A stretch of 64,000 nucleotides of DNA from Rhizophagus irregularis. Taxonomy: Eukaryota. Made by a program: the position numbers and the translations under genes. The stretch's first letter is position 1; each line of letters starts with the position of its first letter. Shown piece after piece: positions 1 through 45,691 of the stretch. The DNA lies in contig NC_089429.1 in NCBI RefSeq assembly GCF_026210795.1, forward strand, positions 868,001-932,000, written 5' to 3'. Under the pieces are notes generated by a model. It was not told where the DNA came from and searched no databases. It worked only from the letters and a program-made list of their open reading frames with translations.

Positions 1-1219
1 ATTCTTAGCGACTTGCGTGATAAAGGTTGAGCTAACATTCTTGAAATTGTGTTGGCACGTTTAATGCTATTTAAATTTAGCATAATTTGTAATTTTCTTA
101 ATACACTATCTTTATGTCATTAGGATGTTTACCGAGAGTCAGCAAAAAATGTACTTGACAGATAATCCAACGCCTCATCAAAGACGTGATTGAGCAATCG
201 TTATTTTACTATGCATCTACGACTGATAATTTATTCAAATATTTCAATAATATTTACAGGCCTTTGTAACAGTTTAATAATTAATAATATACGTACGCTA
301 ATTAGTAAGAAATTTGATTTATAAATCAACTTTATAGGAGTGTTTAGGACTTAGAACACTTATTATTCATAATACAAAACCATATTGTTCACTTTAGTGG
401 ATAATTATACAAGTTTATCAAAAAGTTATATTATGATTAAGTTTAATACTATGATTTAATAGTAAATGAACGAATAATAAAATGTAATATACTTTAAGGA
501 TAATGGTCTGCAAATCTTGGACTAAATAAATTTTTTTAAACCAAAAATTAATAAAAAAATGCAAGCAACGTATTAATTATCAAATATCATTATTCCGTTT
601 TAAAATCTGTGGCCACAAAAAATATTATCCATTTATATTATAGTTTATGGCAATTTTTTTAATTGAAACTTAACATAAATGGAAAAAAAATGAGGTAAAT
701 AAATAAATCTATTAATTGCTAAAACTGCATTTTATCTTTATCGTTTGTGAGTAATGAAGTAGGTGAATATTTATAATTAACTCTATATGAATCATTGGAT
801 TAATAATAATGATATAAATAAAACTCGATATATAATCAGTTTTAATATTTGATTATTTTTCGCTGCAATTTCTTTCTATGTTAAGTGAGCAAAGGTAGTT
901 ATAGTCTATATAATAAATAAAACACTGCAGAAAAGGACCTCAGTTTATGAGTTTGGGTATTTAAAGTTTTAATTATTTATACAATCCCAAGACGTAATGA
1001 TAATTTGGAAATAGCCAAGTATTATATTATTTGATTTTTTTTCGCGAGTTCGAAGTTTTCATCATTTGACTAGTGACGTAAAATTTTGATCATCTCACGT
1101 GATTAATGATTAATTACTCATGCGAAAAAAATCATAAATCATTCCATTCCATTACTTTTACGAAAAATTCTTGCTCTTTTTTTTTTTTTAAAAAAAAAAA
1201 AGCAAAAAATTCGTGAAAC

Positions 1220-1662
1220 ATGGAAAAGAAAGAAAGTTATGAAATATTAGAAGATAATCCAATCTTGGTAAATTTTATTAAATAGTATTATTATCATCTT
1301 ATTTAAATGTTTTTATTATACAAGTGAATTATTACTTATAAATTTTGATTTTTTTACGTTAGCAAACATCAGTAATTTCTACCAAAAATTCTTCTTCTAA
1401 AGATATTCAACAAAATCAATCATTTTGCAAGATTTCTTCCTCTTCTTCATCACGTTCATCAATATTTTCTAATAATATCGATAAAAAAATATTACAAAAC
1501 GAAAGGAAAAAAATGCTTAACAGAAAGGCTGCTGCAAGATTAAGACAAAAAAAAAAGAAAGAGGTAAAAGAATTACAAGATTCAAATATAAGTTTAAGAG
1601 GTGAAATTGAACAAGTGGAAAGTATTATAATGAAATTAAGACAACAAATTATGGGATCTTGA
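1220..1662 (+). CDS. Small bZIP transcription factor (115 aa, 2 exons: 1220-1267, 1363-1662)
   Basis: GT..AG intron 1268-1362 joins MEKKESYEILEDNPIL to an exon with a bZIP basic region (ERKKMLNRKAAARLRQKKK) and heptad zipper (LQDSNISLRGEIEQVESIIMKL). Not in the ORF track, which shows only its antisense shadow. Confidence 0.85.
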
Positions 1663-2133
1663 AATAAAGGAGAAATAATTTTTTTATTTTTCAATATATT
1701 GTATGAATTTGCTAATATTATCATATTGAAACATTATAACTTGATATTAATTATTAACATGTATTCCGGGAATTGGGAAATTAATTTTATAGAGAACAAA
1801 TTATTATATTTTATAATTAGGCAAATTTAGCTTTATATATAGTTACGCGAGTATTTTTTGTATATTTAAATCTTATTATAAACAAAACTTTCGCCAATAT
1901 CGCTATGAAATTATTTTTAATAAGAAAATGTGTTGCGTAACGTTTTTAAATTTTGATATAATATAATTCATGCAGAGTAATTCAAAATCTACTGATCAAA
2001 AATAGATAATTCTATTTTAATAAAAAATGCATAACTTGATCTGGTACCTAAAGAGCTATCAGACCTTTGCTATTCAATATCTTTATCTTTATCTGATATA
2101 ATATTTAAAATTTTACCTAACCAATTACAGTAT

Positions 2134-4737
2134 TTTATTTATTTATTTTATGTGAAGCCGGACAGACTATTAAACAGGACATATACCACACGTGAGTTAT
2201 CCTACTTCTAGCTATCATCTATCACCAGGGCGGACCCAAACTTCTTTAAAAATGTTGGAACCAGCCTGATCCTCCTCCACTACCGAAAGAAGAACAGGAA
2301 CCACAATTAAAAAGTGAACTAATTAACCCGTATTTTTCTTTCAACCATCAAGGTCACCACCTGTAAATACTGTCATAGGTGGAATGATTCACACTGTTTG
2401 TAATTGTTAATATCTATTTTAATACGAACCAAAAAAATTCAAAAAATGAATTACAAAATATAGAAACTAAACTATTTCAAAATACGAAATTTAAAAATTA
2501 GGTCTATATTAGCGGGTAAGAAGTCTTCTTCTTTAGTATCCCTACAATCGAAAGTACAAATTTTTTTTGTTAAAGGTGTAAGATCTCCATAATAATTATA
2601 GTGATTATGTCTGGCGCGATGCTTTTTTGGGCGACATTCTATTATTTTCGTGTCATCGGAGGTATCACTGAGATCATCTTTTACGTATTGAATATCATTT
2701 GGGCGAATAATAGCGCAGTACGGTTTTAAAGGGTAGTGTTCATCCCTGTATTGTTGTCCAAAATCTGTTATCAAATTGTTGAGATGTCTTGAAGCGACTG
2801 TTCGTTTGTCGTTGCTTTTCTTCGTAGATGCTCCATACGCAAAATTGCGAATACTGGCCATACGGTCATCAAAATTATCATTCATACGAGTAAAAAACTT
2901 TATAGCATTAATACGTCTAAGGTAATGTTTGGCGGAGGTATTATGATCCTTAATGTCTTTAATGACATTTAACCTTTCATTAAGACGATCACGAACTCTG
3001 ATCTCACTGATGCGATCTTCATCTAAACCTAGCATATATGCGTCTCTCAAGGATAGCTGAATTGTAGAGTCTTGTAATAAAAGTACGGCATCTATGTATT
3101 CTGATGCACCTTTACCATAATGTTCGTCAATAAGATTTGCGATATACCAATCCCTATAAGAGTTTTCTGATGTATCATCCCTGCCATTGTTGGCTGAAGA
3201 GTCATCCTCTTCATCTGAATTCTGAATCTTGATGACACTGCGTGATGCAGGAGTAATGTGAGGAGGAAGAATCCTATCTTCAGAAAGATGTAAAAGAGCG
3301 CAGTTCCGATCGTATGGAAAACGGAATAAGGGAACGGTTGGGAGATGAAGGATCCGTGTATAAATCTTTTGATACAGATGAAAAAGGAACTTCCTTTGAT
3401 TCGCAAGTTTAATCTTGTGGCAGAGTTTAAGGGCCATCCTAGATTTAGGTTTATTACCATTGAAAATACGTTGACAAGATCGGTCAAAATGAGCTTTTTG
3501 CCGTGCAGCAGTACGTAAATTAGAACTTAAAATGCAAGAAAAGTTCTCATAAATCTTGGTATACATAGGACCAGTAGCCTTGTTAGGGGGTAAAATTGAG
3601 TCAAGGTTGTGTGCTTCATAACGCGTTGTATAAGAGATGCCCAATCGATTCGAAAAAATCTTTTGCCTTGAGTTATTGTTATATTTCTCGTAAATAATGT
3701 TGGCGTGAAAACTTTTGTGATGAATAATATTGATCTCAGGTGCTGATGTTGCCTTATCCTCTGAGAGTGTGTTTTTTTCTTGAGTGATAGCCGAATGGTG
3801 TTGGATGCAAGCGTGTCGATTAAAATTTTTAACAAAAGGGCACGGTATATGGCATGGTGTTGTTTTTTGATGAGGAAACTTTTTTGTAGGTAGGTGATTA
3901 CAAGCTACATAGATACCAAAGTGAAATCTGTATCGTTTATAAGAGAAGTTGAAAAAAGTTTTGGTAATATTGTTGCTGCACGTGATTTTTCCTTCACGTA
4001 ATGCTATCAGATTGATTCTATCTAACAACTTGAGTCGTATCATGTTAAAAAATTTGTTCTGAATACGCCGAGGAATGACTCGTTGATGTAAAAAAAAGTG
4101 CGTGAGGCATTTCGATATTTGAAATCGATGATTAGGTAATTTGCTTGTGGAATAATACCGAATTGGGGTTGATAACATATGATGATCGTTTATGTATATT
4201 TTAAGGTGAATTTCATTGGTGTCTGGTATTTGATCGACAACCTCAAAAAAGAAACTTTTTGAACGCCTACATTCATAGATCTTATTATAACCTGCTTTGG
4301 ACGCAGCAGTCACATGAAATTTTTTGAAAGAGACCAAAAAAGAGAAGGTCGAAAGTATTGGTGAGGGTAAAGGAGCTTTGACTATGATAGTCGGAAGTGC
4401 GTTATCCTGTGGTTTAATATTCATCCTTAAAACTTTATCTTTAGAAAGTCCGCCTTCAGGAATGTTTCTTCTGTTATCGAAGTGTACATCCAACTGCGGA
4501 TAAGGTTCCAAAGGTTCATATGAGGCCAAGGAAAAGTTGGTATTTTTGTTGTTTGAAGATGACATAGTCCCTTAATATTGGGATAAGATAAGAATAAAAC
4601 CTTGTATGAGAACCAAGACGCCCAACAGGGCCTTTTTCCCCTTAAAGTTTTCGTGAAAAACTATAGAAAAATAACCAAGCGCAAAATACTGCGGAAAACT
4701 AACAAAATAAAAAAAAAGGGGAAAGAGTTTTTTTTTT
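2134..4737 (-). mobile_element. Full-length retroposed, RT-less protein-coding element, copy A
   Basis: 16-bp direct repeat TAACCAATTACAGTAT at 2118-2133 and 4738-4753. Minus-strand 3' end ...CTTCACATAAAATAAATAAAAATA; 5' end A-run+CTCTTTCCCCTTTT. Termini and ORF are homologous to 42788-45443. Confidence 0.85.
2472..4565 (-). CDS. 697-aa basic protein of unknown function encoded by element copy A
   Basis: Intronless ORF, more GC-rich than its flanks. Paralogous to 43344-45272 (38/54 identities in the KFHVT...SxPI block). Candidate Zn ligands CNH...C...RHACIxHH. Confidence 0.85.
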   Translation of the reverse strand: MSSSNNKNTNFSLASYEPLEPYPQLDVHFDNRRNIPEGGLSKDKVLRMNIKPQDNALPTIIVKAPLPSPILSTFSFLVSFKKFHVTAASKAGYNKIYECRRSKSFFFEVVDQIPDTNEIHLKIYINDHHMLSTPIRYYSTSKLPNHRFQISKCLTHFFLHQRVIPRRIQNKFFNMIRLKLLDRINLIALREGKITCSNNITKTFFNFSYKRYRFHFGIYVACNHLPTKKFPHQKTTPCHIPCPFVKNFNRHACIQHHSAITQEKNTLSEDKATSAPEINIIHHKSFHANIIYEKYNNNSRQKIFSNRLGISYTTRYEAHNLDSILPPNKATGPMYTKIYENFSCILSSNLRTAARQKAHFDRSCQRIFNGNKPKSRMALKLCHKIKLANQRKFLFHLYQKIYTRILHLPTVPLFRFPYDRNCALLHLSEDRILPPHITPASRSVIKIQNSDEEDDSSANNGRDDTSENSYRDWYIANLIDEHYGKGASEYIDAVLLLQDSTIQLSLRDAYMLGLDEDRISEIRVRDRLNERLNVIKDIKDHNTSAKHYLRRINAIKFFTRMNDNFDDRMASIRNFAYGASTKKSNDKRTVASRHLNNLITDFGQQYRDEHYPLKPYCAIIRPNDIQYVKDDLSDTSDDTKIIECRPKKHRARHNHYNYYGDLTPLTKKICTFDCRDTKEEDFLPANIDLIFKFRILK

Positions 4738-5016
4738 TAACCAATTACAGTATATTTTATTGTCTGGAGGACGATATCAAAAAATTTGTGGTCACGGTTC
4801 ACCCACGTGATCCTCAGCCAATAAAATCGCCTCCCATTTCCTAGTTATACAATTTAGCCTTATTATTTATCTTCATTATATTTCACCAATTTTTAACAAG
4901 CTATTATTTAAGCTTAAGAAAAAAATATTAATAAGCTTATTTGAAAATGAGAACGAATAATTTTATGTAGAAATCGGAGTATTATACGTTATGAACTATA
5001 ATACTATAACCATTAG

Positions 5017-5159
5017 GGTATTAGGACATTTCGCCGAAAGCCATTTCGCCGAAAAATAATCTCTGGCCTGAGTTATTTATAATTCTGCATAATGTTGGCC
5101 CTATTTTTCGGCGAAACGTCCTTTCGGCGAAATGGCTTTCGGCGAAATGTACCGTAACC
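5017..5159. mobile_element. Small MITE with internally repeated TIRs (possibly Mutator-like)
   Basis: Inverted arms ACATTTCGCCGAAAGCCATTTCGCCGAAA / TTTCGGCGAAATGGCTTTCGGCGAAATGT. Imperfect 9-bp flanks AACCATTAG / TACTATTAG. Confidence 0.65.
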
Positions 5160-5242
5160 TACTATTAGAGATGTTAGCAATCTGAAATGCGAATACATCG
5201 CTAGTACTTAAAATATTGTAATTAGTTATATATTGACACTTT

Positions 5243-5343
5243 ATAATGATTATTCTGGAAATAATCCATTGATTCCTCATAATGATTATCCTGGAAATAA
5301 TCAATCAATTTCTCATAACAGTTTTCTGGAAACAATCTATTGA
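5243..5343. repeat. About 3 copies of a ~36-bp degenerate tandem repeat
   Basis: ATAATGATTATTCTGGAAATAATCCATTGATTCCTC-like units. Confidence 0.6.
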
Positions 5344-5366
5344 GTGAAATATGTCTTCGTCAATTT

Positions 5367-5578
5367 AGGACCCCGAAATATACATAAAAGGGTCAGGTCA
5401 GAGTTTGCGTATAATGAGTCAAAAAATCATGTAGATCATTCCTTTTATGGATAATTCCAGCCAAAATAATATTTCCTAATTTAGATAATGGCTGAAATTA
5501 TCGTAATTCCGGCCCTGAAAGAATGCGTATTTTGGACCACTTCTGGACCTGACCTCTACATATATATTTCGGGGTCCT
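5367..5578. mobile_element. 212-bp MITE sharing termini with the P-like transposon at 49988-54640
   Basis: TIR AGGACCCCGAAATATA at both ends. Perfect 8-bp TSD GTCAATTT (5359-5366, 5579-5586). Confidence 0.9.
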
Positions 5579-7627
5579 GTCAATTTCATTTAAATTATTC
5601 TAGGCTTACACCTTTTTGATTTATAATTTACTGCGCCTGCGATAAATCATAAGAATTCAGAGATTTTTTTTTTAGTTACTATTCCCTCCAAAGTATCAAC
5701 TATAGTCTTAACCTCAAAGTATCATAAATTTCAAATTATTTTCATTAAATAATAATAAAAATTTAATTCTTAAATTATTTTTATATTTTGTTGTTTTAAT
5801 CAATATTTATCTATCAAATAAGGATTTATTAAAAAGAAAAAAACTTTATTACATTCAGTTTGTTACGTCATTATCCAAACATTTATTTTGTGATTAATTA
5901 GCATTGTATAGCCAAATTATTGAACGTAATATCTACTAGATATTTATTAAAATAGCATTCGGAATTATTTTTCTTAAAAGATTTAACGCATGATTCCAGA
6001 AACAACATTCTTGTACAATCACAATAAAATCAAATAGACTACCAGTTGTTTCATTTTTAATTAGGATTTTTTTTCTTTATAAAACATAGAACGTGATATG
6101 AGGGAATCAAAAAAAAGTTTAGGAAATATAGTAAAGTATTACGGCATGATATAATATAAATGTATGGTACGATTAATAATTTACAAGTACGAGCGGGCAT
6201 GATGTTAATCGTGCTAGAAATTAGTAAATTATTAACTATTGATGCTATAATCTGATGATAGAATTGAATAAGACAATCAAAGTAAGGAAAAATGTTACAA
6301 AAAAAAATTAATATAAGCATTTAGAAAGTTAAAGTTTCAACTCCGAATAAAAAAATTAAGTTAGAGTTGAAACAAGTATTAATAAATAATTTAACTATAT
6401 CAAGCTTTAGAAACTTTTTTGATAAAAATAATGGCAATTTTGCATTAGACAATTAGATAACAAATTTTTGCATACTTACATGCTTAAAATTATAATATCA
6501 ATTATAATAATGTCAAATAAATAAAGTTTCAATTCATTATTTCATCATAGATGAAAATGATCAACATTTTTAACATTTGTAGAGAGAACTAACTTAATAC
6601 ATTTATAAATCATTCAAATATAAACTTGTATAAATATTATAAATATTTTATATATATAACATGTTTCGTATAAAACCAATACGATATGATCAGTCAATGG
6701 ATGATATCATAACTGTAACTGTGGAACGCAACTATTTTAATAATACTGAAAGTTTGATCATCCTTTTAAATGAAAAATTTTTTTGCAATTTTAAATGTTT
6801 CTTTTAAAAAAAATTTTTAAGTCCATAATTTGGTTTAATATAACAAAATTAATAAAATGCGGAATAAAGGAATGAAAATGTAAAAACATCTGCTAAGTGA
6901 AATATAAATTTTATAAAGTTCATCAAAGTTTAGAAAGTGATTTAAATACTACGTTAATTATAAATTTTACTCATAATCATATTTTTTTCAAAAGAACTTT
7001 CTGAATTCTTTGGGATGACTTAGATGACTTACCCTGAGATTTACATTTTAACCAGAAGATTCTAGTAAAAAAATTGAACTTGTGATAATAACATAACGAT
7101 AACGATAACGAAAATACTCCATAAAGCCCCATAATGTTCATTTTTACGTTACAGTATTTGTTAGTAATGCACGTATTATTATCTAAAAAATTTATCTTTT
7201 GTTACAGATTTTAAAGTTTTAATTCTTTCGGAAAAGTATATAGCACAAATCACGAATTTAGTCTAAAAGAGTAATTCTCAATGCCGAATTTTTTTACTTT
7301 TAGAAGTTGGAATTCCAAAAAATTTGGATCTTTTCGACAACATGATTATATTTTAAACACTGCACTTAACAATTAGTAAATAAACATAAAAAATGTGTAT
7401 ATTTACTAGCAGTTATCAACAAAAAATATTATTTGTTTATTTCTTATGAATCTATTTTAAATAAATCTTTTAAAGCTATTAATGACCAATATCGGCAAAC
7501 AATGCTATTACTTTGATATACAATACTTATAAAAAAAACAAATGAAATAAATGAAATAAATTTTATATCTATAACAGTATTTTGCTTATTTATTTTATTT
7601 AAACATTTAAGCAAAAATATTCTCAAT

Positions 7628-10600
7628 TTACTTTGCATGAATTTGTTCTAATCTATTTTGAGCATTTTGATTTCCTTGCAATGCAGATTGTTTATACCAG
7701 TAAATTGCTTGATTTATATCTTTAACAATCACTTCTCCATTCTCATACATAAAAGCAAGATTATATTGAGCTATACTAATATTTCCTAAATCTGCTGATT
7801 TTTGAAATAATTCAAATGCCTTTTTTTCATCAATTTCAGTTTCAATTCCTTTTTTATAACAATTACCTAAATTATTCATTCCATATGCATTTCCTAAATC
7901 TGCTGATTTTTGATATAATTCAAATGCCTTTTTTACATCAATATTAGTTCCAATTCCTTTTTTATAACAATTACCTAAATTATTTATTCCACCTGCATTT
8001 CCTAAATCTGCTGATTTTTGGTATAATTCAAATGCCTTTTTTTCATCAATATCAGTTCCAATTCCTTTTTTATAACAATTACCTAAATGATTTATTCCAC
8101 CTGCATTTCCTAAATCTGCTGATTTTTGAAATAATTCAAATGCCTTTTTTTCATCAATATCAGTTCCAATTCCTTTTTCATAACAATTACCTAAATTATT
8201 CATTCCATATGCATTTCCTAAATCTGCTGATTTTTGATATAATTCAAATGCCTTTTTTACATCAATATCAGTTCCAATTCCTTTTTTATAACAATTACCT
8301 AAATGATTTATTCCACCTGCATTTCCTAAATCTGCTGATTTTTGAAATAATTCAAATGCCTTTTTTTCATCAATATCAGTTCCAATTCCTTTTTCATAAC
8401 AATTACCTAAATTATTCATTCCATATGCATTTCCTAAATCTGCTGATTTTTGATATAATTCAAATGCCTTTTTTACATCAATATCAGTTCCAATTCCTTT
8501 TTTATAACAATTACCTAAATGATTTATTCCACCTGCATTTCCTAAATCTGCTGATTTTTGAAATAATTCAAATGCCTTTTTTTCATCAATATCAGTTCCA
8601 ATTCCTTTTTCATAACAATCACCTAAATTACTTATTCCAGTTGCATTTTCTAAATCTGCTGATTTTTGGTATAATTCAAATGCCTTTTTTACATCAATAT
8701 CAGTTCCAATTCCTTTTTTATAACAACCACCTAAATGATTTATTCCACCTGCATTTCTTAAATCTGCTGACTTTTGATATAATTCAAATGCCTTTTTTTC
8801 ATCAATATCAGTTCCAATTCCTTTTTTATAACAACCACCTAAATGATTTATTCCACCTGCATTTCCTAAATCTGCTGACTTTTGATATAATTCAAATGCC
8901 TTTTTTTCATCAATATAAGTTCCAATTCCTTTTTTATAACAATTACCTAAATTATTCATTCCACTTGTATTTCCTAAATCTGCTGATTTTTGATATAATT
9001 CAAATGCCTTTTTTTCATCAATATCAGTTCCAATTCCTTTTTTATAACAATCACCTAAATTACTTATTCCAGTTGCATTTCCTAAATCTGCTGATTTTTG
9101 ATATAATTCAAATGCCTTTTTTTTATCAATATCAGTTCCAATTCCTTTTTTATAACAATAACCTAAATTACTTATTCCATTTGAATATTCTCTTTCAGCT
9201 AATTTTTTAAATAATTCAAAAGCTTTATCATCATCTTTATAAACACCATTCCCATGTATATAACAGCAACCAAGGTTATATTGTGCTATAATATTTCCTG
9301 AATTTGCAGCTATCTGATATAATTCAAATGCCTTTTTTTTATCAATATTAATTTCAATTCCTAAATAATTAAAATCTCCAAGTAAAACAATAGAATTTGA
9401 ATGATTTTGATTATTTAATAACCAAATATAAATTTCCTGTGAAGTCATATTATGATTATTAAGATAATTATAAATACATAGTCTTTCTAATTCTTCATAT
9501 TCTACGCCTGCCTTATCAGAAAGTTCAACAATTTCATCAACCATCACCTTAAAATTATTATTTGATGATATTGAAGAATCTATTTCTTTAGTATTCATCT
9601 TGTTAAATTCTTGAATAAATTTGGATAATTCCCCATGTGATGAATTATTTATAGGATCTTCAAAAGCATTCAAATCGAGTTGTTGTTTACTGGATAATTG
9701 GTTTGTATAAGAATCATTTGCCCGAAAATCTTTTATAATCATGTTATTATTATTCTTCAGAATAATTGCATTTAATTTAAAAACCACCTGATTGATAGTT
9801 GGACGATTATCTGGTTCATTATTCCAACAATCTAAAAAAAATAGATAGAATTAATTTAACATTAATATAAACATAAAATTAATTATTAATTATATTTACC
9901 AGTATAAATATTCACATAATCTTCGGGTGTATCAGGAATGGGTGTCTCTCTAAGGCCTTGTGATATATTAATAGCTAAACAAACGTCATATGGTTTACCT
10001 TCAGTATAAAAAGGAGGATTGCTACTAGATATCTCCCATAAAAGTACTCCAATACTATAAATATCACTTTTTTTATTTAATTTATAATCTTGATTACTGA
10101 AACTTTTTGGGTCAATATAAGGAATTACTCCAAATAATTTCGTTGAAGAAAGGTTGGATGATTCTTCAATTCTTTTTGATAAACCAAAATCTGCTAATTT
10201 AACTATATTTTGATGAACTAATACATTTTTGGAATGCTATTAATATTATTAAATACAATAAATTTATTAATTACAATTCAACAACAAACATGAAATAACA
10301 AAATGTAAACAAATGAATTACCAAATCACGGTGAATAATTCCTTCATCGTGTAAGCATAATATAGCACAAGCCAACTGAAATGCCATATTAAACTTATTA
10401 TTCCAAGTAAGATTATCAAAATGTTCCTTCAAATATTCTCGAAGAGTACCTCCATTTGCATATTCCATTACTAACCAATATTTTTTTGAATTATCAACCT
10501 GATTTTCTTTGTAAAAAAAAAATAAATAAAACAATAAATTTATATTTTACAATCAAATTATGCATGAAAAGAAAGTATATTGTACCTGTTGCAATACCAC

Positions 10601-10972
10601 AGAAACGAATAATATTCTCATGGAAATCCACTTCCCGTTGGATTTTAAGCTAAACAGAATTTTAAATTAGAAGTTATATAAATTATAAGGTAATAATTAT
10701 TTTATTATTACCTCTTTAACTATTTCTTTAATTGTGACGTTGTTAAAATTGAAAAAAGATTTTAATGCCAAATAATTAGGAGAACTTTTCCAGTTCGCAC
10801 GGTAAACTTTCCCAAATCCTCCGAACCCAATTTCTTGAAAATTACTAAAATGATTGAGTTCATAATATTTAAAGTAATCTTTTGCAATGGCTTCTTCAAT
10901 CCAATTAATCCACTCATTATTTGAATTTTCAGTAAAATTTACGGGTATATTAGACTCAGTGTTATTAGACAT
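7628..10972 (-). CDS. TKL-like protein kinase fused to 16 Sel1-like repeats (~1016 aa; exons 10972-10712, 10649-10586, 10506-10322, 10236-9900, 9831-7628)
   Basis: Motifs GFGGFGKV, ALK, HRDLHSKN, DFG, PYIDP, SDIYSIGVLLWE, CW..EPDNRP. GT-AG introns keep the frame. C-terminal 36-aa KKAFELYQKSADLGN..G...LG.CY..GIG repeats. Confidence 0.92.
7780..9190 (-). repeat. About 13 near-identical 108-bp coding tandem repeats (Sel1-like units)
   Basis: 108-bp periodicity with an alternating 216-bp higher-order pattern. Confidence 0.9.
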
Positions 10973-11489
10973 TATTGGGCTTCTTAATTTTATTGACGAA
11001 GATAATATTTTTTTTTTTCATGCAATTTATTATAAGGAGTGGTATTACCAAAACGTAATTGTGCATGTAGTGCCTCGACCCGGATGAAAACCGTCATCCG
11101 GATTACACAAAAAAAAAATCCGGATTACATCCGGATTGACCCGGATTTTGAATCCGGATCAGATAATCCGGATAGAAACCGGAATCCGGATTGGATTTAC
11201 ATATAATTTTTTTTTGACTGCGAACTAAAGTTAAACAATTTTCGCATAATACTTCAAAATATTTATTGTCAAAAATTACCAAATAATAATTACTGAAATC
11301 TGATGCAAAAATATACTAAAAATAATTTAAGAAATAGATATTAATTATAATTAAATTATGATAGCAGCAATTTAATTATTTCATTTTTATTTTAACATTT
11401 CTTTATGTTTATACAACAATTTCATAGCATTTATGTTTTTGTTAATAAGCTTTATAAAATTTATTAATAAAATTATTTTTAAGTTTATA

Positions 11490-12270
11490 GCATTATTTAA
11501 TAAATTTGTGGCTTTTAATAAATTTTATATAAGCTTTGTGTCATTTGTGGCTTTTATGAGTAGGACTTGTGGTTTTATAGATGAGATCACAACTTTTTTT
11601 AATAGGATTATATATGGCTTTTTTGATAAAAATATGGCTTTTTATTTTGATAAAAATTAAAATCATTTTGTGGCTTTTTTTGATAAAAATTAAGATTACA
11701 TTATGGCTTTTTTTTGATAAAATTAAGTTTGTTTTATGACTTCTTTTAATAAATATATGGTTTTTTTAATAAAATTGTGGCTTTTTTTGATAAAATCATG
11801 ATAGTTTTCTTGATAAAAATTAAGATCATATTATGGCTTTTTTTTTGATAAAAATTAAGATCACATTATGACTTTTGTTGATAAAATAATGCTTGTTTTA
11901 TGGATTCTTTTAATAAAATATATAACTTTATTAATAAAATCATGGCTTTTTGATAAAATTATAGTTCTTTTTGATAAACATTAAGATCATTTTATGGCTT
12001 TTTTTTTGATAAAATTTATACTTGTTTATGATGAGATATAGTTTTTTTAATAAAATTATGATACTAGTTTTTTTTGATAAATATCAAAGATCATTTTATG
12101 GCTTTTTTGATAAAATATATAGCTTTTTTAATAAAATTATGGCTTTTTTAATAGAATTATAGCTTTTTGATAAATATATAGGCTTTTTTTTTTGATAAAT
12201 ATTAAAATCATTTTATGGCTTTTTTTGATAAAATCTTAATTTTATAAATTTATAATAAAAAGCCATAACC
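11490..12270. repeat. Degenerate AT-rich repeat array inside the hAT left arm
   Basis: Recurring TTATGGCTTTTTTGATAAAA-like units. Confidence 0.7.
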
Positions 12271-12373
12271 TTACTTAAAAAAACACTATATAAATGCTGT
12301 AATTTCACCTTGATAATTTTTACATAATTTCACTTTGAAATTAAATTTAATATTTAAAAATAATTTATTAAAT

Positions 12374-14629
12374 ATGGCAGATGATAGTAGTTATATTCTA
12401 CCTTCAAGTGATGATGACTTTAGTGAAGAAATTACTAATGAAATGGTCCAAATACCAGAATTACCAGTAGCTACAAGTGAAATAGAACAAATAAATGTAA
12501 TTAGTATACCTGACTCAACAGTTCAAATATCAGCTAAATTACAAACAAAAGTAAGTAGTTGGGTATGGAAATATTTTATTAAAGATTATAATAATAAAGG
12601 TGAAATACGTGCATATTGTCAATTTGTAATGGAAAATGGAGATAAATGTACAAAGAATTATAAATATGATGGATCTACAGGAAACCTTAGTAGTCATATT
12701 ATTAAACATGGAATTATACCACCTACAGCAGCAGAAAATTTACCTGCTGCTGAAATTAAATCAAAGCCTATACAATCTATTGATAATATTGGACAAAAAG
12801 AAAAGGAAGAATCTACATTACGATGGATTCTATTGACAACACAACCCCTTTCAACTGTAATTCACAAAGCCTATATTGAACATATGCATATCATAGATCC
12901 AGAATTTATAGTTCCTGGAGAGAGGAAAATTAGAATGATGATTGCTCAAAGTTATGGATATAATAGAAACAAATTAAAGCAATTTTTAAAATCTGCCCAA
13001 TCCATTTCTTTGACCACTGATTTGTGGTCTTCTAGGTCAAAACATGGTTATTTAGGTTTAACAGCAACTTGGATTAATCAAAATTTTGAAATAACAGATA
13101 TTTTACTTGAAATATCCTATTTTCCAGCACCACATACTGCAGATAAAATTGCACAAACTATTAAAATGATTATCCAAAAATGGGAAATTGAAAACCTTAT
13201 AGTATCAATTACAACTGACAATGGTGCTAATGTAGTAGCTGCTATTCGTGAATTAGCACCAATTGAAAGGTTTTCCTGTGCAGCACATACTTTACAATTA
13301 GCTATTGGAAAGGGTTTAAAACTTGTGGAAGATTTAGCAATACGTGCAAGACAGTTAATTAATTTTTTTTCAACTCAAAAACAGATTGAACGATTAGTTA
13401 AAATACAAAAAGATAATGGTTATGAGGAGCAATTACATTTAATACAAGATATTCCCACTAGGTAAATAAAAATTTTAAATCTTTAATTTTGTTTACAAAT
13501 TACAATATAATGCTAATATATTTAATTTTATTTCAATTATTTAAGATGGAATTCAACTTATTTAGCATGGGATCGTCTTATTTTCCTTCAATGTGCTATT
13601 CTTCAGCTTAATGTAAATTTATCTTGTTCTTTAATACGTGAAGAAAAAGCTGATAGTATCAAATTGAAAAAAATTATGTTGAGTGATAATGAATGGGAAT
13701 TACTAGATGAATTATGTAATATTTTGTCACCATTTGAAAAAGCTACACGAGATTTGTCTGGAAATACTTATGTTACATTAAGTCAAGTGGTTCCTATTAT
13801 TACAAGACTTACAAATTCTTTAAATCCATCTGGTAATTTATATGAAGAAGAACCTGATGATAGTTTTAATGATTTAGAAGAAGAAAATTCAACTAACCAG
13901 CAAACTAATTATGATAATATTAGAGAAACTTTAGAAAATGTAAAGAAAAATATTTACAGAAGTTTGAGATACTATTGGAAAATACCAAACGAGTTTGGTA
14001 TTATGGCAGCACTTTTAGACCCAAGATATAAGAATCTTGATTTTATTTCTGATGATAGTATAAAGAGAAAATTTCATTCTACTTTAAGAACACGATATGA
14101 CCAATTAAAATGGGATATAAGTCAGCAAAGTATTCCATCATCACCTACAACTGTTACTTCTGCTGAAAGTTTAATTGCTGGAAGTTCAACTCCAAGTAGA
14201 TCTTTACGTGACCATAAAGCAAGACGTGAACAAAAAGCAAAAGAAGTATTTCAAAGAACAGAAATCCCTACATCATCAATGGAGGATGAAATTACAAGCT
14301 ATCTTCTTATGCCAATTGCAAGGGAAAATAAAAATCCATTAGATTGGTGGAGAGTAAAACGTGAAATTTTTCCAATTCTCTCTTTAATTGCACAAAAGTA
14401 CTTAGGTATTCCTGCTACCTCTGTAGCTTCTGAGCGACTTTTCTCTGATGCAGGAAATCATATTACATCAAAAAGAAATTCATTGGACCCTGGCCTATTG
14501 GGAAAAATGATATTTTTAAAGCGTAATATGCAAACAATGGATCATATTAATGTGTTTCCTCCAGATTTAGATGTGGAAAAGAGTAATTCAGAAGAATATT
14601 TATCTGAATGTGAATTTGAGGAATGGTAA
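12374..14629 (+). CDS. hAT transposase with BED zinc finger (723 aa; exons 12374-13461, 13546-14629)
   Basis: SWVWKYF..C..C..STGNLSSHIIKH BED finger; TTDLWS, TTDNGAN, CAAHTLQL, TR|WNSTY across the intron; PATSVASERLFS dimerisation motif. No stops after splicing. Confidence 0.93.
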
Positions 14630-15329
14630 ATAAATAATAATTTTTATCTACAATTATTTGTTATTTGTTAATGTATAAATTTAAATAAATAAATCTGATA
14701 CAAACTTCAATAAATAAATTATAATTGAAAAATCTTCTTAAACTTACTGTATTAAAAAGTTTAATATAACTAATAAATTTTAATAAAAAAAATTATCCAT
14801 AATATCATTTAGATATAGAACGTTATGGATCAGCAAAATTATTATTATTAAAAAAAAAAAAAAAAATTTCATCCGGATTCCGGGTCAAACCGGATATTTT
14901 TCATCCGGTTTATAATCCGGATGAAAACCGTAGAAATCCGGATATCCGAAAAAAAAAAATCCGGATCAATCCGGATTGATCCGGATACGGGTCGAGGCAC
15001 TATGTGCATGGAGGTACAGTAACTGTCGATCACTTCAGGTGATACTTTAAAAAACATTTCAGTTTATATTATGTAGATCAGATTTTAGTTAATTTGAGCC
15101 AGAATTATCTCTAAATATGGACTGCAATTTTCAACGTTGTTTAATATTTTTTAGAATCATAAATAATATCGCATAAAATTGCAACTTTAATTAAAAATTT
15201 GGTCTGGGACGGTTCAGACCACATCTTCATATTTTAATTAATAACTATAATTTTTTTTAATTAAGGGACATATCTGTCACTCAATCGGAGAAATTTAATT
15301 AATACAATACAAGTATACAACACAGTTAA

Positions 15330-16340
15330 AGTTACACTGAAATATTCATGAAAATATCATACGATTTTGTGAAATCACAAAGATAGAATATATCAGTAAG
15401 TATTGAAAACATATTTAACATAATAATCAATTTATCTTAATAATAAGTAATTATTTTAAGATAAAATTGATTTAATTAGGCGAAATTTAAAAATATTCTT
15501 TAGTCTTAGAATACGCTGATAGTAGTGGTACGTTAAATGCTTACTTATTTAAGCAACCATTTTAATGTTTCGAACTGGAATGATAGATCCCACTTAGCAT
15601 TGCAATTGGCCAGCTCTGTAGAATTTTTGCAGATAATGATATTATTCATTGTGACCTGGTAATACTATATATTTTTTATATATTTTATTCATTCTAATAT
15701 CATTTATTTTAAAAAAAAATACAGCATAATAATTGAAGCATGGAAATAATATACATATACTTATATATACATCAGAAAAATATTAAATTAGCAGATTTTT
15801 GTTTATCAAAATAAAATTGTCGAAGCATCAAGTGACATATCAAAAGCACTTGGTGTATTACCCTATATCGATATGGACCCAAAAGTTTCGATGACAAAGA
15901 AAATTATAAATTAAATAAAAAATCTGATGTATACAGCATTGAAGTTTTATTTTGGCAAATTTCAAGTGGATGCAGACCTTTTTGTTGAAATTAATTATGG
16001 TCCAAGTTTAATGTTATTTATATTAAATGGTAAAAGAGAAAAAATTGTTGATGGAACTCCTGTTAAATATGGTAAAATATATACAGGTAACATTAATAAC
16101 CTTATTAATATTTTTTTATGAGCATTATTATTGATATTAATTTTATTTACTAATTGATTAGCATGTTGGAATTATGAACCGAATGAACGTCTAAATATGC
16201 AAGAAGTTGTTGTGACACTTAAAGCAATCATTTCTTCTGAAATTACCATTTATAATAACTTAATGAAGACAAAAAAAAATTCTTTTTCATCAGAAAATTA
16301 TGAAACAAATTTAGAATCAAGAAAGGATCTTTGGATATAA
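15330..16340 (+). pseudogene. Degraded TKL-like kinase pseudogene
   Basis: Frameshifted remnants of [58 protein letters not shown], with intron positions like the kinase at 7628-10972. Confidence 0.8.
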
Positions 16341-18532
16341 ATAATGGTTTAAATATTAACAGATAGTTTAATATTTGATACCATCAAATATTACACCATT
16401 AAATATTAATGTATGTGATAGTAGGATAAGGCGGTAATTGTAGTAGTCGTATGAATTTTATTGTCAATGACGTCTTTTCAATTATAAAGTTGATATCCTT
16501 TATTGAGAATCTAGAATAAAATTATTAAAAAATACAAGCTTATTGTATCCACTGATGTTTTTTATTATGAATTTCAAGCCTTATTATAATATTTTTTTTT
16601 TTACATTTCATTATTATTTCACAAAAAATCTTTTGTTAATTGCAAACCTTTTTGATGAGTTTTACCTTTTATATATATTAAAACATTTCTTTTTACAATT
16701 ATCACAAAAGCATTGTGTGTGACCTAACTCGTTTCTTTTATGTATTATCAATATTATTCATCATTTTTCTTACATGTTTTGAAGATGAACATGATAAAGT
16801 AATTTTTGATTAATATGTATAATTAATTGGCTCTTTACAATCAAATTGTTTCATTCGTTTTTTATTTGAATTAAGATTGGCTATACAAAAAACCAATTTT
16901 TCAGCAGGATCTTTCATAAAATCCTATTATGCCATTATACCAAAATTTCTTTTATAGTATAAATTGACAATTGCACCAGTTTCCGAAATAAGAATAAAGG
17001 TGATACCAGTTTCTAAATTTGGAACAATAATTTGGGTATGAAAAATTAAAAAATGGGAAATATTGAAAGAATATAATGAAATCTACAAATATCGATGTGA
17101 TGTTCATTTTTTTTTAAATAAAAAGGATTGTTAAAAACATATTTATTTAAAAGCTTTTTTTACATAATATTTTCATATATAATAACTGAAAATAACAAAT
17201 GAAATCCGCAACTTACTTTTTAATTTAAAAGATTATGCAATGTAATTAATATATTTATTGCATGCAACGGGTAAAAAAAATATTTTGTTGTTCAATTAAT
17301 AATTAAAAATATCTCTGTCTAATAATTTTTTCTAATAAACTATAATATTTAATATATATTTTAACATTTCAAAGAGAATTACAATGAAAATGATAAAATA
17401 AACTGTCTATAAAATAAAGTAATCGTAGTTTCTTATTATGAACTGCAGATGATAGATAGTACATATGTTTGTTAACCGGTAATGCACTGCTACTTTTGTA
17501 AGGGATTCTTGGGTTCATTTAAATCTGGAAATTTGACCTAAATTGTTATTATAAAATTACTCTATATTTTTTAATATTGTAATAGGTCAAATTCTTCTTT
17601 CTGATACCCGGGAAAAGTTGCTTCTGATATTGCATAATTATTTACATAAGTAGTATTTGACATTGATGGATTTGGATGTACAGTATATCTTCTTGAGGTT
17701 TATTTTGTGAATTATTTTCATTTGAATGATTTTCATTTTTAATGATTTATTTCCGTTTTTAAATATTCGATGTAACTTGTCTTTATTTTTTTCAATGAAT
17801 TCAAAATTGGAATAGTAAATTTAACTTCAGATTTACTTTAGAATCGAAGCATGATTGGCCTATTATTGATCAGCTGATTCGTTCATGTGATCATTCAACG
17901 CACGATATTAAAAAAAAAGAATAAAAAAAACATTTCCTATATTATAGTAACAAAACACTCGTTTTATTTTAATAAAAGAAGAATAAATTACGTTTTCTCT
18001 TTAATAAAAACAACTGATTTTAGTTTTTTTTATCAAATCATAAAAAATAATAAAAACTGATTTTGGGTTTTTATTTAAAAAAAAAATATCAAATGCAATT
18101 TTATATTAAAAAAAATGTGTTTTGTTTATTACATAAAAAAGTTTCATTTATTAAATAATTTTTTTTTATTAAGGAACAGAAGTAACTAATTGGCACAGTC
18201 AGTTGTTTTGTCATATTCGCGAAATTTGATGCAGTATCATATTTAGATTAATGTGAAAAACTGAAAAACAAATATACGATAAGAATGAATGGCTATGGAT
18301 TTACTAATATAAAATTTTAATATAAAATTGGTAAACCTATGATAACTAATCTAATTTTCTAACCTAATTTTTTTAATCTATTATGGTTTAATTGTACTTT
18401 TTATGTCGAGGAGTGATGACATCACCCATCTTTTTTTTCACTTATCAAATATATTGTTTTTTTACAAATATTTTACACTAGTATTATATTAGTATAAAAT
18501 ATCAAAAGAATAAAAATAATTAAGAAATATTG

Positions 18533-34448: not shown

Positions 34449-34963
34449 TACTTTTTATTTTCTTCTTTATTGAGACAAATGATATCATTTATAATTTATC
34501 GATTATCATTGAAGTTTTCTTTTGAGAATTGTAAGAATAAATAGAAACATGAAATAAAAATTATGCATGGTGCTAAATCAAATATAATTATTATGGTATG
34601 TATCGAAAAATAAACTTTTAACCAATAAATTTTAAAGATTCATATGATCGTTTAAAAATTCGGATAGGATTAACCCGGATAAAACCTAATTTAATGAATG
34701 TATCCGGATTAACGATCCGGATTTGCATCCGAATTGCCTAAATAGATTTTTGTCACAGTGACGTGATTTTAGGACACGATTACTAAGGGGGGGGGCATCC
34801 GGAATTTACTTAAATTAACTAAAAAAAGGAACGATTTACAAATTTTTTTATTGCAGGTCATATTGTTGCCTTTTTATGGAATATTTAATAAATTGTACTC
34901 GAAAATTGATAAATTTGCATCCATTGTGAAATGAAAGCAAACTCTTTTTTTTCTTCAACCAAC

Positions 34964-41839: not shown

Positions 41840-42420
41840 AACCCTAAAAGAAAACCCAATAAAGAGAAGACCTAGACAGAGAAGATAAACCTAAAAAAAA
41901 GATGAAAAAAATATAAGATGAAACATTACCCACACTCCCAACCAACATACCTAAAGGAGGACGTAAAGAAAAAGGCCTAAAAGAAGACCTAATGAAGAGA
42001 AGACCTAAATATAGAGAAGATAGACCTAAAAAAAAAGATGACGAAAAAAAATAAAATGAAACACCACACTCCCAAACCCACACTCCCACACTCCCAACAC
42101 TCCCACACTCCCAACACTCCCAACACTCCCAACACTCCCAACCCGCACTCCCACACTCCACTACCAACACTCCCAACCCGCACTCCCAGACAGAGAGAGG
42201 ATAGACCTAAAAAAAAAAGATGACGAAAAAAAAATAAAACACCACACTCCCAAACCCACACTCCCACACTCCCACACTCCCAACCCGCCCACACTCCCAC
42301 ACCCCACCCACACTCCCAACCTACATACCCAAAGGAGGACGTAAAGAAAAAGGCCTGAAAGAAAACCTAATGAAGAGAAGTCCTAGACAGAGAGAAGATA
42401 GACCCGACGAATAAAAAAGA
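41840..42420 (-). repeat. Compound repeat: duplicated AGAGAAGATAGACCTAAAAAAAAGATG blocks interleaved with (CTCCCACA/CTCCCAACA)n microsatellite
   Basis: Directly visible. The minus strand is G-tract rich and carries GTATGT donor-like and TTTTAG acceptor-like signals. Confidence 0.8.
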
Positions 42421-42787
42421 GGTGGTATTGAGGGTATATAAATACTTTTTTCAAATACATAGTGACTAATAATGAGATAATATCTTTCCGTTTCTTCCGA
42501 CTGTTTTTTACAATCACAAAACTTGCTTTTCTATAAAATATTGGAAGAATGAAAAAAAAAAGTGTCAAAATGACGTTAGAGTTGTCAAAATGACTAATAA
42601 TTGAATCATAGAAAAAATCATATGTTCATGATCAATAAAAATAGACTTTTCGTACTACTCATATTGGTGGCACATCAAGTATTTTCCTATAGTATCTTTG
42701 TAATCTTGCGCAATACAATTGTTTAACAATAAGGGGCTGACTGAACTAGGAAAGAATAGCAGATAATCGCATTATTAATTATTATTT

Positions 42788-45443: not shown

Positions 45444-45691
45444 TCGCATTATTAATTATTATTTTTATTTATCTGTAAGGCGTCAACCACTTTATACAAA
45501 TCACGTGATATAATCTTATATTTACTAAGGAGTGGATAAATTATAATCCCGTCTCGCGACTCTCGCGTCCCATTCAAAATTACGAATCATAATCCCAAAA
45601 AATTCAAAATCTCACACTCATTATCCCAAAACTTATTATCTTTTTTTTTTAAAAAAAAAATTTTACATTATTATTTTTCTTTTAGATGTAA

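Follow-up and report, generated by a model that had tools for sequence, protein, structure and literature searches.

Two units within the window (the whole 64-kb stretch of Rhizophagus irregularis DNA that was analysed) are best read as full-length copies of a Glomeraceae-restricted family of protein-coding non-LTR retroposons, referred to here as DUF8211 elements. The members of this family have no reverse transcriptase (RT) of their own and are likely copied by target-primed reverse transcription (TPRT), with the RT and endonuclease (EN) of a LINE acting in trans; we assign this reading a probability of roughly 0.7. The family has its own large protein but no copying enzyme, which makes it likely that it borrows the RT of another element.

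According to an account of the R. irregularis genome, about half of the latter consists of repeats, and two-thirds of its transposable elements (TEs) are said to be unclassified (PMC11075540). The DUF8211 elements would provide one concrete class for part of this unclassified fraction, namely a protein-coding, RT-less retroposon with defined ends, and at the same time a function-level lead for the uncharacterised Pfam family DUF8211 (PF26638). A full-text search of the literature for the term "DUF8211" found no paper, and none of the titles and abstracts retrieved on non-LTR or non-autonomous elements of Rhizophagus or Glomeromycota describes the family; Repbase, Dfam and subscription journals lay outside the scope of this search, and TE libraries may list the family under another name.

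Two insertions with common ends

Both units are approximately 2.6 kb long and lie on the minus strand, copy A at positions 2118-4753 and copy B at 42767-45464. Each is enclosed by a perfect target-site duplication (TSD): in copy A, the 16 bp ATACTGTAATTGGTTA on the 3' side (2118-2133) recur on the 5' side (4738-4753; 16/16 identical), and in copy B, a 21-mer on the 3' side (42767-42787) recurs on the 5' side (45444-45464; 21/21 identical). For comparison, when the 60-nt flanks were shuffled 2000 times with their composition preserved, shared words reached a length of at most 12. Long terminal repeats (LTRs) and terminal inverted repeats (TIRs) are absent from copies A and B, because the TSDs are their only terminal repeats. 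TSDs are documented for two copies only, 2/2 of those in which both ends can be seen; no single contig among the 14 from metagenomes spans both element ends. In the flanks of one relative (L001) the only common word is an 8-nt A/T stretch; its contig probably stops short of the element end, and it was excluded from the TSD count. The perfection of the TSDs of copies A and B points to recent activity. The copy A site was filled in 3/3 DNA sequencing runs compared, and neither an empty site nor strain polymorphism was seen among these three runs.

The 3' terminus of both copies is GTCTGTCCGxCTTCACA followed by TAAA repeats. The TAAA-repeat tail of copy A comprises 17 nt (2134-2150) and stands directly after CTTCACA (2151-2157). 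In copy B, the TAAA-repeat tail after CTTCACA (42798-42804) is short and grades into the A/T-rich TSD (motif and tail together 42788-42804). In both insertions the tail adjoins TAAA-like target sequence.

The 5' terminus of both copies consists of an A-run and then CTCTTTCCCCTTTT. The A-run comprises 10 A in copy A (4728-4737), where it lies between the TSD and CTCTTTCC, and 4 A in copy B (45440-45443). The 5' UTR of copy A (4566-4727) starts with CTCTTTCCCCTTTT and contains TTCCGCAG at 4689-4696; that of copy B (45273-45439) has the same terminus and contains TTCCGCAG at 45401-45408. Each terminal motif has exactly two occurrences in the window, and at least two matches were obtained in 0/100 shuffles. 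The combination of an A-run and CTCT(T/C)TC is seen at 7/7 visible 5' ends (copies A and B and the relatives L001, L002, L005, L009 and L014), TTCCGCAG occurs at equal spacing in five of six aligned sequences, and the 5' terminus is kept in metagenome relatives with 30-42% identity.

At every visible 5' end the A-run sits inside the TSD, a feature that was counted against the preferred reading; its retention there also argues against ribozyme cleavage at CTCTTTCC. In Rfam, copy A produced only chance-level snoRNA and sRNA rows at E<=10, with no ribozyme and no other family among them.

The preliminary description had noted long TSDs of differing length, a common 5' terminus composed of the A-run and CTCTTTCC, and a TAAA tail after CTTCACA, and had read the TSDs and the A-rich tail as hallmarks of TPRT. 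Both TSDs, the terminus and the tail are present in the two copies, and the anatomy is that of target-primed retroposition: variable long TSDs and a simple-repeat tail overlapping a TAAA-like target, without terminal repeats.

The DUF8211 protein and the two-hairpin RNA module

Copy A encodes an intact, intronless DUF8211 ORF of 697 aa (2472-4565, minus strand); the annotated protein P0001, which carries PF26638, is 100% identical to it over 69% of the ORF. The DUF8211 ORF of copy B (43344-45272, minus strand) comprises 642 aa from the ATG, the ORF listing starting two codons upstream at TTG, and is C-terminally truncated: 38 former codons (43230-43343) lie behind a premature TGA (43344-43346), and 33 of these 38 residues align with the C-terminus of another family protein (P0046) with 67% identity. 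The description of each unit as bearing one intronless ORF of 640-700 aa therefore stands as regards number and length and needs correction as regards copy B, which has a premature in-frame stop. Because of this stop, and since several metagenome copies are frameshifted, many copies are dead.

The ORFs of copies A and B are 43% identical in their core, and PF26638 is found by precomputed annotation on 76/76 relatives, including P0001. A local copy of Pfam, which apparently lacks the PF26638 model, assigned no family to ORF A and only a sub-threshold Rpn13 match (E 0.17) to ORF B; across 25 family members, it revealed no family common to more than one member.

The DUF8211 ORF is under purifying selection. 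The preliminary description had proposed a comparison of dN and dS across copies; between metagenome copies the ratio is 0.16-0.50 (three pairs: 0.21, or 0.16 with L006 as reference, 0.27 and 0.50), and the differences at first, second and third codon positions amount to 15/17/38 and 42/36/63.

The core of the protein could be modelled with confidence (pLDDT 87.9, pTM 0.73). Foldseek returned no match to this core model at E<=0.001 in either PDB or BFVD, and the best Z in a VIA fold comparison was 3.8 among 48,161 chains; with the whole-protein model, VIA retrieved only generic helical hairpins (Z about 7). PDB sequences searched with a profile yielded no hit under E 1, and the top feature score in the ESM Atlas (0.75) was under the level of a usable lead. 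The comparisons with Pfam and with solved structures revealed no ORF1 or Gag to which the protein is similar in sequence or fold. It is basic (core pI 10.1) and helical in its C-terminal region; its conserved residues are aromatic, basic and Cys/His, and the near-invariant columns of a 43-sequence alignment include C158, C174, C189 and H192; Asp and Glu are absent from these columns.

The second conserved component is a two-hairpin RNA module common to all lineages. In copy A it occupies positions 2327-2399 (minus strand; covariance model R1, 88.3 bits) and consists of a first hairpin (HP1) with a conserved 14-nt loop and a second hairpin (HP2), followed by AAAGAAAAATACGG; its counterpart in copy B is located at 43045-43117 (minus strand; R1, 92.5 bits). 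According to alignments, the 3' UTR of copy A (2134-2471) includes a terminal domain conserved with copy B, and the nucleotide identity between the two 3' UTRs is 76-81% in two blocks. The module begins 72-120 nt past the ORF stop in copies A and B and in L001. The UTRs keep a conserved, covarying structure, as had been claimed: in an alignment of 7 sequences, 68/68 cells are paired and compensatory changes are seen in 10/11 pairs, and in one of 10 sequences, 101/101 cells are paired and 11/11 pairs are compensatory. None of 500 shuffles matches the 10-sequence result, and slid controls are only 31-39% paired. A DNA pattern of the hairpins had no match in viral contigs and none in metagenome contigs, a pattern that was too strict, as it fixed a covarying stem.

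In two lineages (L002/L004 and L003) the module is located in the 5' UTR, and in L011, a relative of L002, it lies 3' of the ORF. The location in the 5' UTR is a poor fit with a role purely as a 3' entry site of the RT and complicates a simple 3'-recognition story.

In the preferred reading, these components could cooperate in the propagation of an element as follows: Transcription would start from the element's own 5' end, where the invariant AAAAACTCT.TC and the TTCCGCAG box at its fixed +33 spacing may constitute an internal-initiator-like promoter with a downstream element. The protein, which is basic, carries a conserved Cys3-His site and lacks any near-invariant acidic position, is predicted to bind the RNA of its element, for which the hairpin module is a plausible site, and to assemble the RNP in the manner of LINE ORF1 or Gag proteins. 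The EN/RT of the partner LINE would nick A/T-rich, tail-like targets; the partner RT may then use the (UAAA)n 3' end for priming and extend the copy as far as the defined 5' end of the RNA.

A more specific and rather doubtful possibility is that the DUF8211 element is one half of a split retrotransposon: its protein, which would have a new fold, would bind the two-hairpin module and hand the RNA to an RT encoded on a separate RNA with the same handle. If so, structural and enzymatic functions would be distributed over two co-evolving mobile units across Glomeraceae, and the shifts of the module between 3' and 5' UTRs would mark a protein-binding packaging signal, not only an RT entry site.

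A dispersed family without reverse transcriptase

The DUF8211 elements are a dispersed multi-copy family with boundaries at the ends described above. In sequencing run X5, the summed contig depth is 338 and 285 in the two flanks of copy A versus 704-18,026 inside the unit, and the depth jumps likewise at the unit ends in runs X7 and X3. Two relatives, L009 and L014, are 97% alike, yet differ upstream of the A-run. In a further run, X18, tentatively taken as RNA, the contigs that touch the unit are all short and come from diverged family members.

The relatives fall into 291 representative clusters at 50% identity, and those that are named all come from Rhizophagus or Glomus cerebriforme. As far as the sequences seen so far indicate, the family is known only in arbuscular mycorrhizal fungi (AMF) and is restricted to Glomeraceae. 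It had been described as old and diversified, in agreement with the number of clusters and with the 43% identity of copies A and B.

The same description had noted the absence of RT, of APE or RLE endonuclease and of DDE motifs from the units. Indeed, no such domain was found in ORFs A and B, RT or EN domains occur in 0/76 and 0/114 relatives, and no Pfam family besides PF26638 was detected in these; the relatives found do not exceed 1220 aa in length, and there is no RT-like long ORF elsewhere in the 64-kb window. In copies A and B and in L001, with only 42-43% protein identity, the ORF leads straight into the same 3' module. Judging from these comparisons, the RT-less layout is ancestral.

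Several simpler classifications were considered and rejected. A one-off internal deletion of a LINE is contradicted by the ORF-to-3'-module layout shared by copies A and B and L001 despite their low identity. For an autonomous LINE, the ORFs and relatives lack an RT/EN domain, and the mere 72-120 nt between the stop and the 3' module leave no space for a second ORF. A SINE is incompatible with a unit of 2.6 kb with an ORF of 640-700 aa, and no tRNA, 5S or 7SL match was found in Rfam.

DUF8211 could also be the fast-evolving ORF1 of an autonomous Glomeromycota LINE, such that the elements would be ORF1-only derivatives of a conventional LINE (HAL1 type) that have lost ORF2 and still use the ends. 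Precedents exist in HAL1 and HeT-A, the basic protein with its helical C-terminal region resembles many ORF1 proteins, and CR1-Zenon, L1-Tx1, L1-R1, R2-Hero, RTE-BovB and I LINEs are reported for R. irregularis (PMC11075540). We nevertheless consider this origin unlikely: DUF8211 is combined with RT/EN in none of the 76 and 114 relatives, no relative over 1220 aa was seen, and comparison of the protein with solved and Pfam ORF1 and Gag proteins revealed no similarity in sequence or fold. Moreover, any loss of ORF2 would have to be ancient and not repeated, because three lineages of only 42-43% identity have the layout of ORF and then 3' module in common.

It is highly improbable that the units represent a host multigene family, the mRNAs of which were repeatedly retrocopied (retrogenes or processed copies) and the UTR elements of which serve host regulation instead of mobility. 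The loci are annotated as genes, their ORFs can be intact, are intronless and have dN/dS <1, and the module resides in UTRs, 5' or 3', which would suit a regulatory element. However, the tail is a TAAA repeat straight after the conserved CTTCACA and not a poly(A) tract, the same start motif is present in every visible copy down to 30-42% identity, and many copies are frameshifted or stopped; relative to the flanks, the summed contig depth rises 2- to 60-fold within the unit, and although the family occurs in a single fungal lineage only, it comprises 291 clusters at 50% identity.

Even less credence is given to a self-sufficient new element, in which the DUF8211 protein would account for the enzymatic steps itself, being a novel nuclease or polymerase, or would recruit them by capturing a host RT such as telomerase. 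The confidently modelled core without structural relative leaves room for such an activity, as does the persistence and diversification of the family without visible RT, whereas the conserved aromatic, basic and Cys/His residues fit binding better than catalysis, and the absence of near-invariant Asp/Glu from the 43-sequence alignment argues against a metal-dependent nuclease or polymerase. Least probable of all is an origin from a mycovirus segment or an RNA replicon without capsid that was endogenised through the machinery of a LINE: conserved termini, structured UTRs and an mRNA-sized single-ORF unit resemble a viral segment, but Foldseek retrieved nothing from BFVD at E<=0.001, the related genomic copies number in the dozens and belong to deeply diverged lineages, and the DNA copies themselves carry a templated TAAA tail and a promoter-like 5' end.

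Relation to known elements

The closest parallels are found among non-LTR elements that depend on others. HeT-A of Drosophila telomeres, the partners of which are TART and TAHRE, is described as lacking pol and requiring RT in trans (PMC5537684). Like the DUF8211 elements, it is a non-LTR element with its own structural protein and no pol, long-lived and abundant (PMC5537684). In contrast, the Gag of HeT-A is recognisably related to the Gags of its partners, whereas nothing outside the family is detectably related to the DUF8211 protein; HeT-A targets chromosome ends without TSDs, whereas the DUF8211 elements occupy internal A/T-rich sites with 16-21-bp TSDs.

HAL1 (half-L1) of mammals encodes ORF1p only and is likewise a non-autonomous LINE-type element with just the first ORF, as outlined in PMC5753468. 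L1 has repeatedly given rise to HAL1 through loss of ORF2, and the ORF that HAL1 retains is L1 ORF1p; the RT-less layout of the DUF8211 elements is instead common to lineages that are only 42-43% identical, and their ORF cannot be recognised as an ORF1.

In stringent LINE/SINE pairs, the LINE recognises a 3' stem-loop that is also present in its SINE (PMC1636434, PMC4176376). In eel UnaL2/UnaSINE1 and zebrafish ZfL2, as in the DUF8211 elements, a conserved 3' stem-loop and a short tail repeat form the likely RT handle (PMC1636434, PMC4176376). The dependants in these LINE/SINE pairs are short and non-coding; the DUF8211 unit, in contrast, is 2.6 kb long and protein-coding, and some of its lineages have the module also in the 5' UTR.

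Among the internally deleted, non-autonomous derivatives of LINEs, NARTc and RIME of trypanosomatids lack an RT and retain both ends of their parent elements. R2 SIDEs are described in the same terms, as RT-less and keeping both ends of the parent element (PMC3414825). All three differ from the DUF8211 units in being non-coding and often ribozyme-headed, whereas the latter keep a large ORF under purifying selection and have no ribozyme match in Rfam.

The DUF8211 elements may offer a tractable system, comprising a basic, confidently modelled protein without structural relative, a small, fully covarying RNA module and perfect TSDs. It would allow testing how the RT of a LINE comes to be captured by a non-autonomous element that encodes a protein itself, a question that is still open for HeT-A. 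Where gene content or effectors are analysed, the many family "genes" annotated in AMF genomes are probably best handled as TE ORFs.

In runs X5 and X7, a joint of position 2385 to position 4709 was observed, which may represent a mini-element composed of the 5' end and the 3' module, the shorter side of the joint measuring only 27 letters.

Boundaries of the two units

Both minus-strand units are bounded by perfect TSDs: copy A (2118-4753) by ATACTGTAATTGGTTA (4738-4753 and 2118-2133, minus strand) and copy B (42767-45464) by a 21-mer (45444-45464 and 42767-42787, minus strand). The longest word shared by the flanks in 2000 shuffles of 60 nt each was 12. A repeat search of the units returned no other terminal repeats, direct or inverted, and the elements thus have neither LTRs nor TIRs. 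Inside the TSD, the 5' end consists of an A-run, 10 A long in copy A and 4 A long in copy B, and then CTCTTTCCCCTTTT; the 3' end of both copies reads GTCTGTCCGxCTTCACA and continues into TAAA repeats. The window contains each terminal motif exactly two times, and two matches were obtained in 0/100 shuffles. At both insertions a TAAA-like target adjoins the TSD, such that tail and target overlap, which would be the trace expected from reverse transcription primed on a nicked, tail-complementary target. The observation in the preliminary description, including the unit anatomy on the minus strand and TSDs of 16 and 21 bp, is real, and its first reading is right in its testable part.

Both ends are visible only in copies A and B. 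The 5' terminus could be followed further by a protein-guided scan of metagenome contigs, which yielded 14 short loci (L001-L014). All five loci that reach the 5' end carry an A-run of 5-8 nt followed by CTCT(T/C)TC (A-runs at L001:121-128, L002:61-68, L005:1986-1993, L009:104-110 and L014:656-660, compared with 4728-4737 in copy A and 45440-45443 in copy B), and the common terminus proposed from the two copies is thus found at 7/7 visible ends. The 160-500 nt that precede the ORF match in L003, L007 and L008 lack the motif; the other six loci start inside the element. L009 and L014 are 97% identical from the 5' terminus onward and unrelated upstream, which marks the 5' boundary independently of TSDs. 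At all visible 5' ends the A-run separates CTCT(T/C)TC from the TSD or flank by 4-10 nt; it could reflect transcription start within the run or added (non-templated or slipped) nucleotides. Across six aligned sequences AAAAACTCT.TC does not vary, and in five of the six it is followed at constant spacing (+32 to +40) by TTCCGCAG; judged by analogy with other non-LTR elements, the two are a putative internal initiator and downstream promoter element.

A diversified family without reverse transcriptase

Copy A encodes a protein of 697 aa (ORF A, 2472-4565, minus strand) and copy B one of 642 aa counted from the ATG (ORF B, 43344-45272, minus strand). The two are 43% identical over 360 residues (E 1e-82), a similarity limited to copy A residues about 65-417, and at the DNA level a single 406-nt stretch of the ORFs is alignable (70%). 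The UTR blocks are better conserved than the ORF DNA (5' UTR 73%; 3' UTR 76% and 81%). Since the TSDs are perfect, the insertions themselves are recent; their source lineages separated long ago. The ends of copy A coincide with those of the 80%-identical database relatives P0002 and P0003. Copy B is slightly truncated by a premature in-frame TGA (43344-43346, minus strand), as the 38 codons behind it (43230-43343, minus strand) still code for the family's conserved C-terminal tail, 33 residues aligning with the C-terminus of the relative P0046 at 67% identity. The apparent 3' UTR of copy B is about 250 nt longer than that of copy A for the same reason.

A Pfam search assigned no family to ORF A and only Rpn13 (E 0.17) to ORF B. 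The precomputed family PF26638 (DUF8211) is present on 76/76 word-indexed relatives, among them P0001, a protein annotated in R. irregularis DAOM 197198 that is 100% identical to ORF A over 69% of the ORF. An exhaustive phmmer search returned 291 representative clusters at E<=1e-3 (58 at E<=1e-30) and a profile search 114 proteins. All named matches derive from Rhizophagus irregularis (several strains), R. diaphanus, R. clarus and Glomus cerebriforme; the remaining ones are unnamed metagenome proteins. No match carries any Pfam family besides PF26638, in agreement with the earlier reading of the units, in which no RT or endonuclease motif was seen. A search for the family among proteins of 1221-3485 aa returned none, which is weak evidence, and none of the ORFs of 110 aa or more elsewhere in the window is RT-like. 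None of the full texts searched names DUF8211, and the titles and abstracts of the Glomeromycota TE papers retrieved do not describe the family.

An origin of the units by a one-off deletion is ruled out by L001, whose protein is 42% identical to that of copy A and which comprises a 5' end, a 264-nt leader, an 808-aa ORF and a 3' module 120 nt past the stop: the RT-less layout is common to three deep lineages (A, B and L001). Several metagenome copies are frameshifted, in line with the decay that most members of a TE family undergo. The dN/dS across copies, a measure named in the preliminary description, is 0.16-0.50 among metagenome pairs: 0.21 for L009 vs L006 (194 codons; 0.16 over 308 codons with L006 as reference), 0.27 for L002 vs L004 (262 codons) and 0.50 for L002 vs L011 (218 codons). 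Differences at first/second/third codon positions number 15/17/38 and 42/36/63 in metagenome copies; in the closest pairs, L009 vs L014 (3/5/5) and L009 vs L010 (3/2/5), they are too few to judge. Among the variant sites in run contigs compared with copy A (see below), of which 40 are listed and 244 more exist, 30 of the 40 fall in ORF A and are distributed 10/5/15 over first/second/third codon positions.

The AlphaFold2 model of the whole protein (25-sequence alignment) is of mixed quality (pLDDT 65.9): its core, at about residues 70-410, is confident, the N-terminus and the linker are disordered, and the C-terminal region is helical. The core modelled alone on 43 sequences reaches pLDDT 87.9 and pTM 0.73. 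Foldseek gave no match at E<=0.001, either in the PDB (whole-protein and core models) or in BFVD (core model), the best Z in a VIA-align comparison with 48,161 representative chains was 3.8 (rmsd 4.3, 91 residues), with no chain at Z>=5, and a profile search of PDB sequences returned nothing below E 1. The protein thus has no detectable relative in these searches, and novelty of the fold is not claimed. The near-invariant columns of the core consist of aromatic and basic residues, Gly, Pro and, in core numbering, C158/C174/C189/H192, with no Asp or Glu, and its pI is 10.1. These features fit a nucleic-acid-binding, possibly zinc-binding protein and would argue against a metal-dependent nuclease or polymerase.

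The two-hairpin module and known retroposons

In the 3' UTRs of A, B, L001, L008 and L011, the 6-bp hairpin HP1 with its conserved 14-nt loop (xTxACAGxATTTAC) is followed by a second hairpin, HP2, and by AAAGAAAAATACGG. A MAFFT alignment of seven sequences pairs in 68/68 cells, with two-sided changes in 10/11 pairs, a covariation reached by 0/500 shuffles; the covarying UTR structure proposed initially is hence supported for this module. With a covariance model derived from these seven sequences, 10 instances are detected at E<=0.01 in window and loci, three of them outside its building set. These pair in 101/101 cells with 11/11 pairs compensatory, and slid controls pair in only 31-39%; being fitted to the model, the 10-instance alignment is biased towards it, a bias of which the seven-sequence alignment is free. 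Rfam holds no family for the module. The 5' UTRs of A and B have a common fold with 4/30 compensatory pairs, weak as only two sequences are compared.

Of the 10 module instances, seven are located 3' of the ORF (one each in A, B, L001, L008 and L011, and a tandem pair in L013) and three in the 5' UTR just before it (L002:293-360, L004:179-246, L003:300-372). A further partial copy occupies the start of contig L003 (1-40), the module thus being duplicated in L003 and L013. L011 and L002 belong to one sublineage, in which the module is therefore probably present at either end of the element. Placement in the 5' UTR, seen in two lineages, is unexpected for a pure 3' RT-recognition signal and suggests that, beyond a role as RT entry site, the module binds the element's own protein, for packaging or RNP assembly.

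Logan contigs of three runs (X5, X7, X3) were compared with copy A and its flanks, using summed contig depth, which is not a copy number, only for multi-copy status and repeat ends. In X5 the flanks have depths of 338 and 285 and the unit 704-18,026, the highest depths being 18,026 over the module, about 7,000 in the remaining 3' UTR bins and 6,048 at the 5' end; X7 and X3 are similar. The unit is multi-copy, and the repeat ends coincide with the TSDs. Contigs without differences cross the 3' junction of copy A in X5, X7 and X3 alike and its 5' junction in X5, so these runs carry the filled site; no empty-site joint is among the joints listed. Many contigs diverge at 2395, the exact module start, which is compatible with numerous sublineages or with other elements that carry the module too. 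Contigs of X5 and X7 also join 2385 to 4709, linking about the first 20-27 nt of the element to the module start and skipping the ORF. The product may be a mini-derivative resembling a SINE; the joint's shorter side spans only 27 letters.

The DUF8211 units fit a non-LTR retroposon unable to copy itself, and the family is one of non-autonomous, protein-coding non-LTR retroposons. The closest known cases are HeT-A, which encodes Gag alone and depends on RT supplied by another unit (PMC5537684), and HAL1, which encodes ORF1 alone (PMC5753468); the conserved 3' structure and tail repeat recall stringent LINE/SINE pairs (PMC1636434, PMC4176376). The family differs from these precedents: (i) its protein cannot be recognised as a LINE ORF1 or Gag; (ii) its RT-less state is ancient and diversified; (iii) its hairpin module is found in 5' UTRs as well. 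Any of the LINEs reported from R. irregularis, namely CR1-Zenon, L1-Tx1, L1-R1, R2-Hero, RTE-BovB and I-type (PMC11075540), could be the RT partner.

Other features of the window

Just outside copy A, 5044-5187 and 5332-5600 show summed depths 200-400 times those of the single-copy flanks (X5), which points to another very abundant short repeat. Adjoining copy B, 41844-42300 (-) translates in two frames into a reiterated 'WECGSVG'-type peptide, suggesting a G/T-rich short tandem repeat. The two adjacent ORFs at 12335-14629 (+) probably represent one hAT transposase gene interrupted by an intron or frameshift; in the second, a hAT C-terminal dimerisation domain matches at E 4e-22, together with a weak match of hAT RNase-H-like type. 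A protein with 15 matched Sel1-repeat stretches (7628-10236 (-), E 2e-139), adjoining a fragment of a kinase domain, and another protein-kinase gene (38746-40202 (+)) look like multigene family members. The intronless paralogous ORFs at 34931-36583 (+) and 59257-60900 (+), of about 550 aa, 69% identical and without Pfam match, are another lineage-expanded family in the window.
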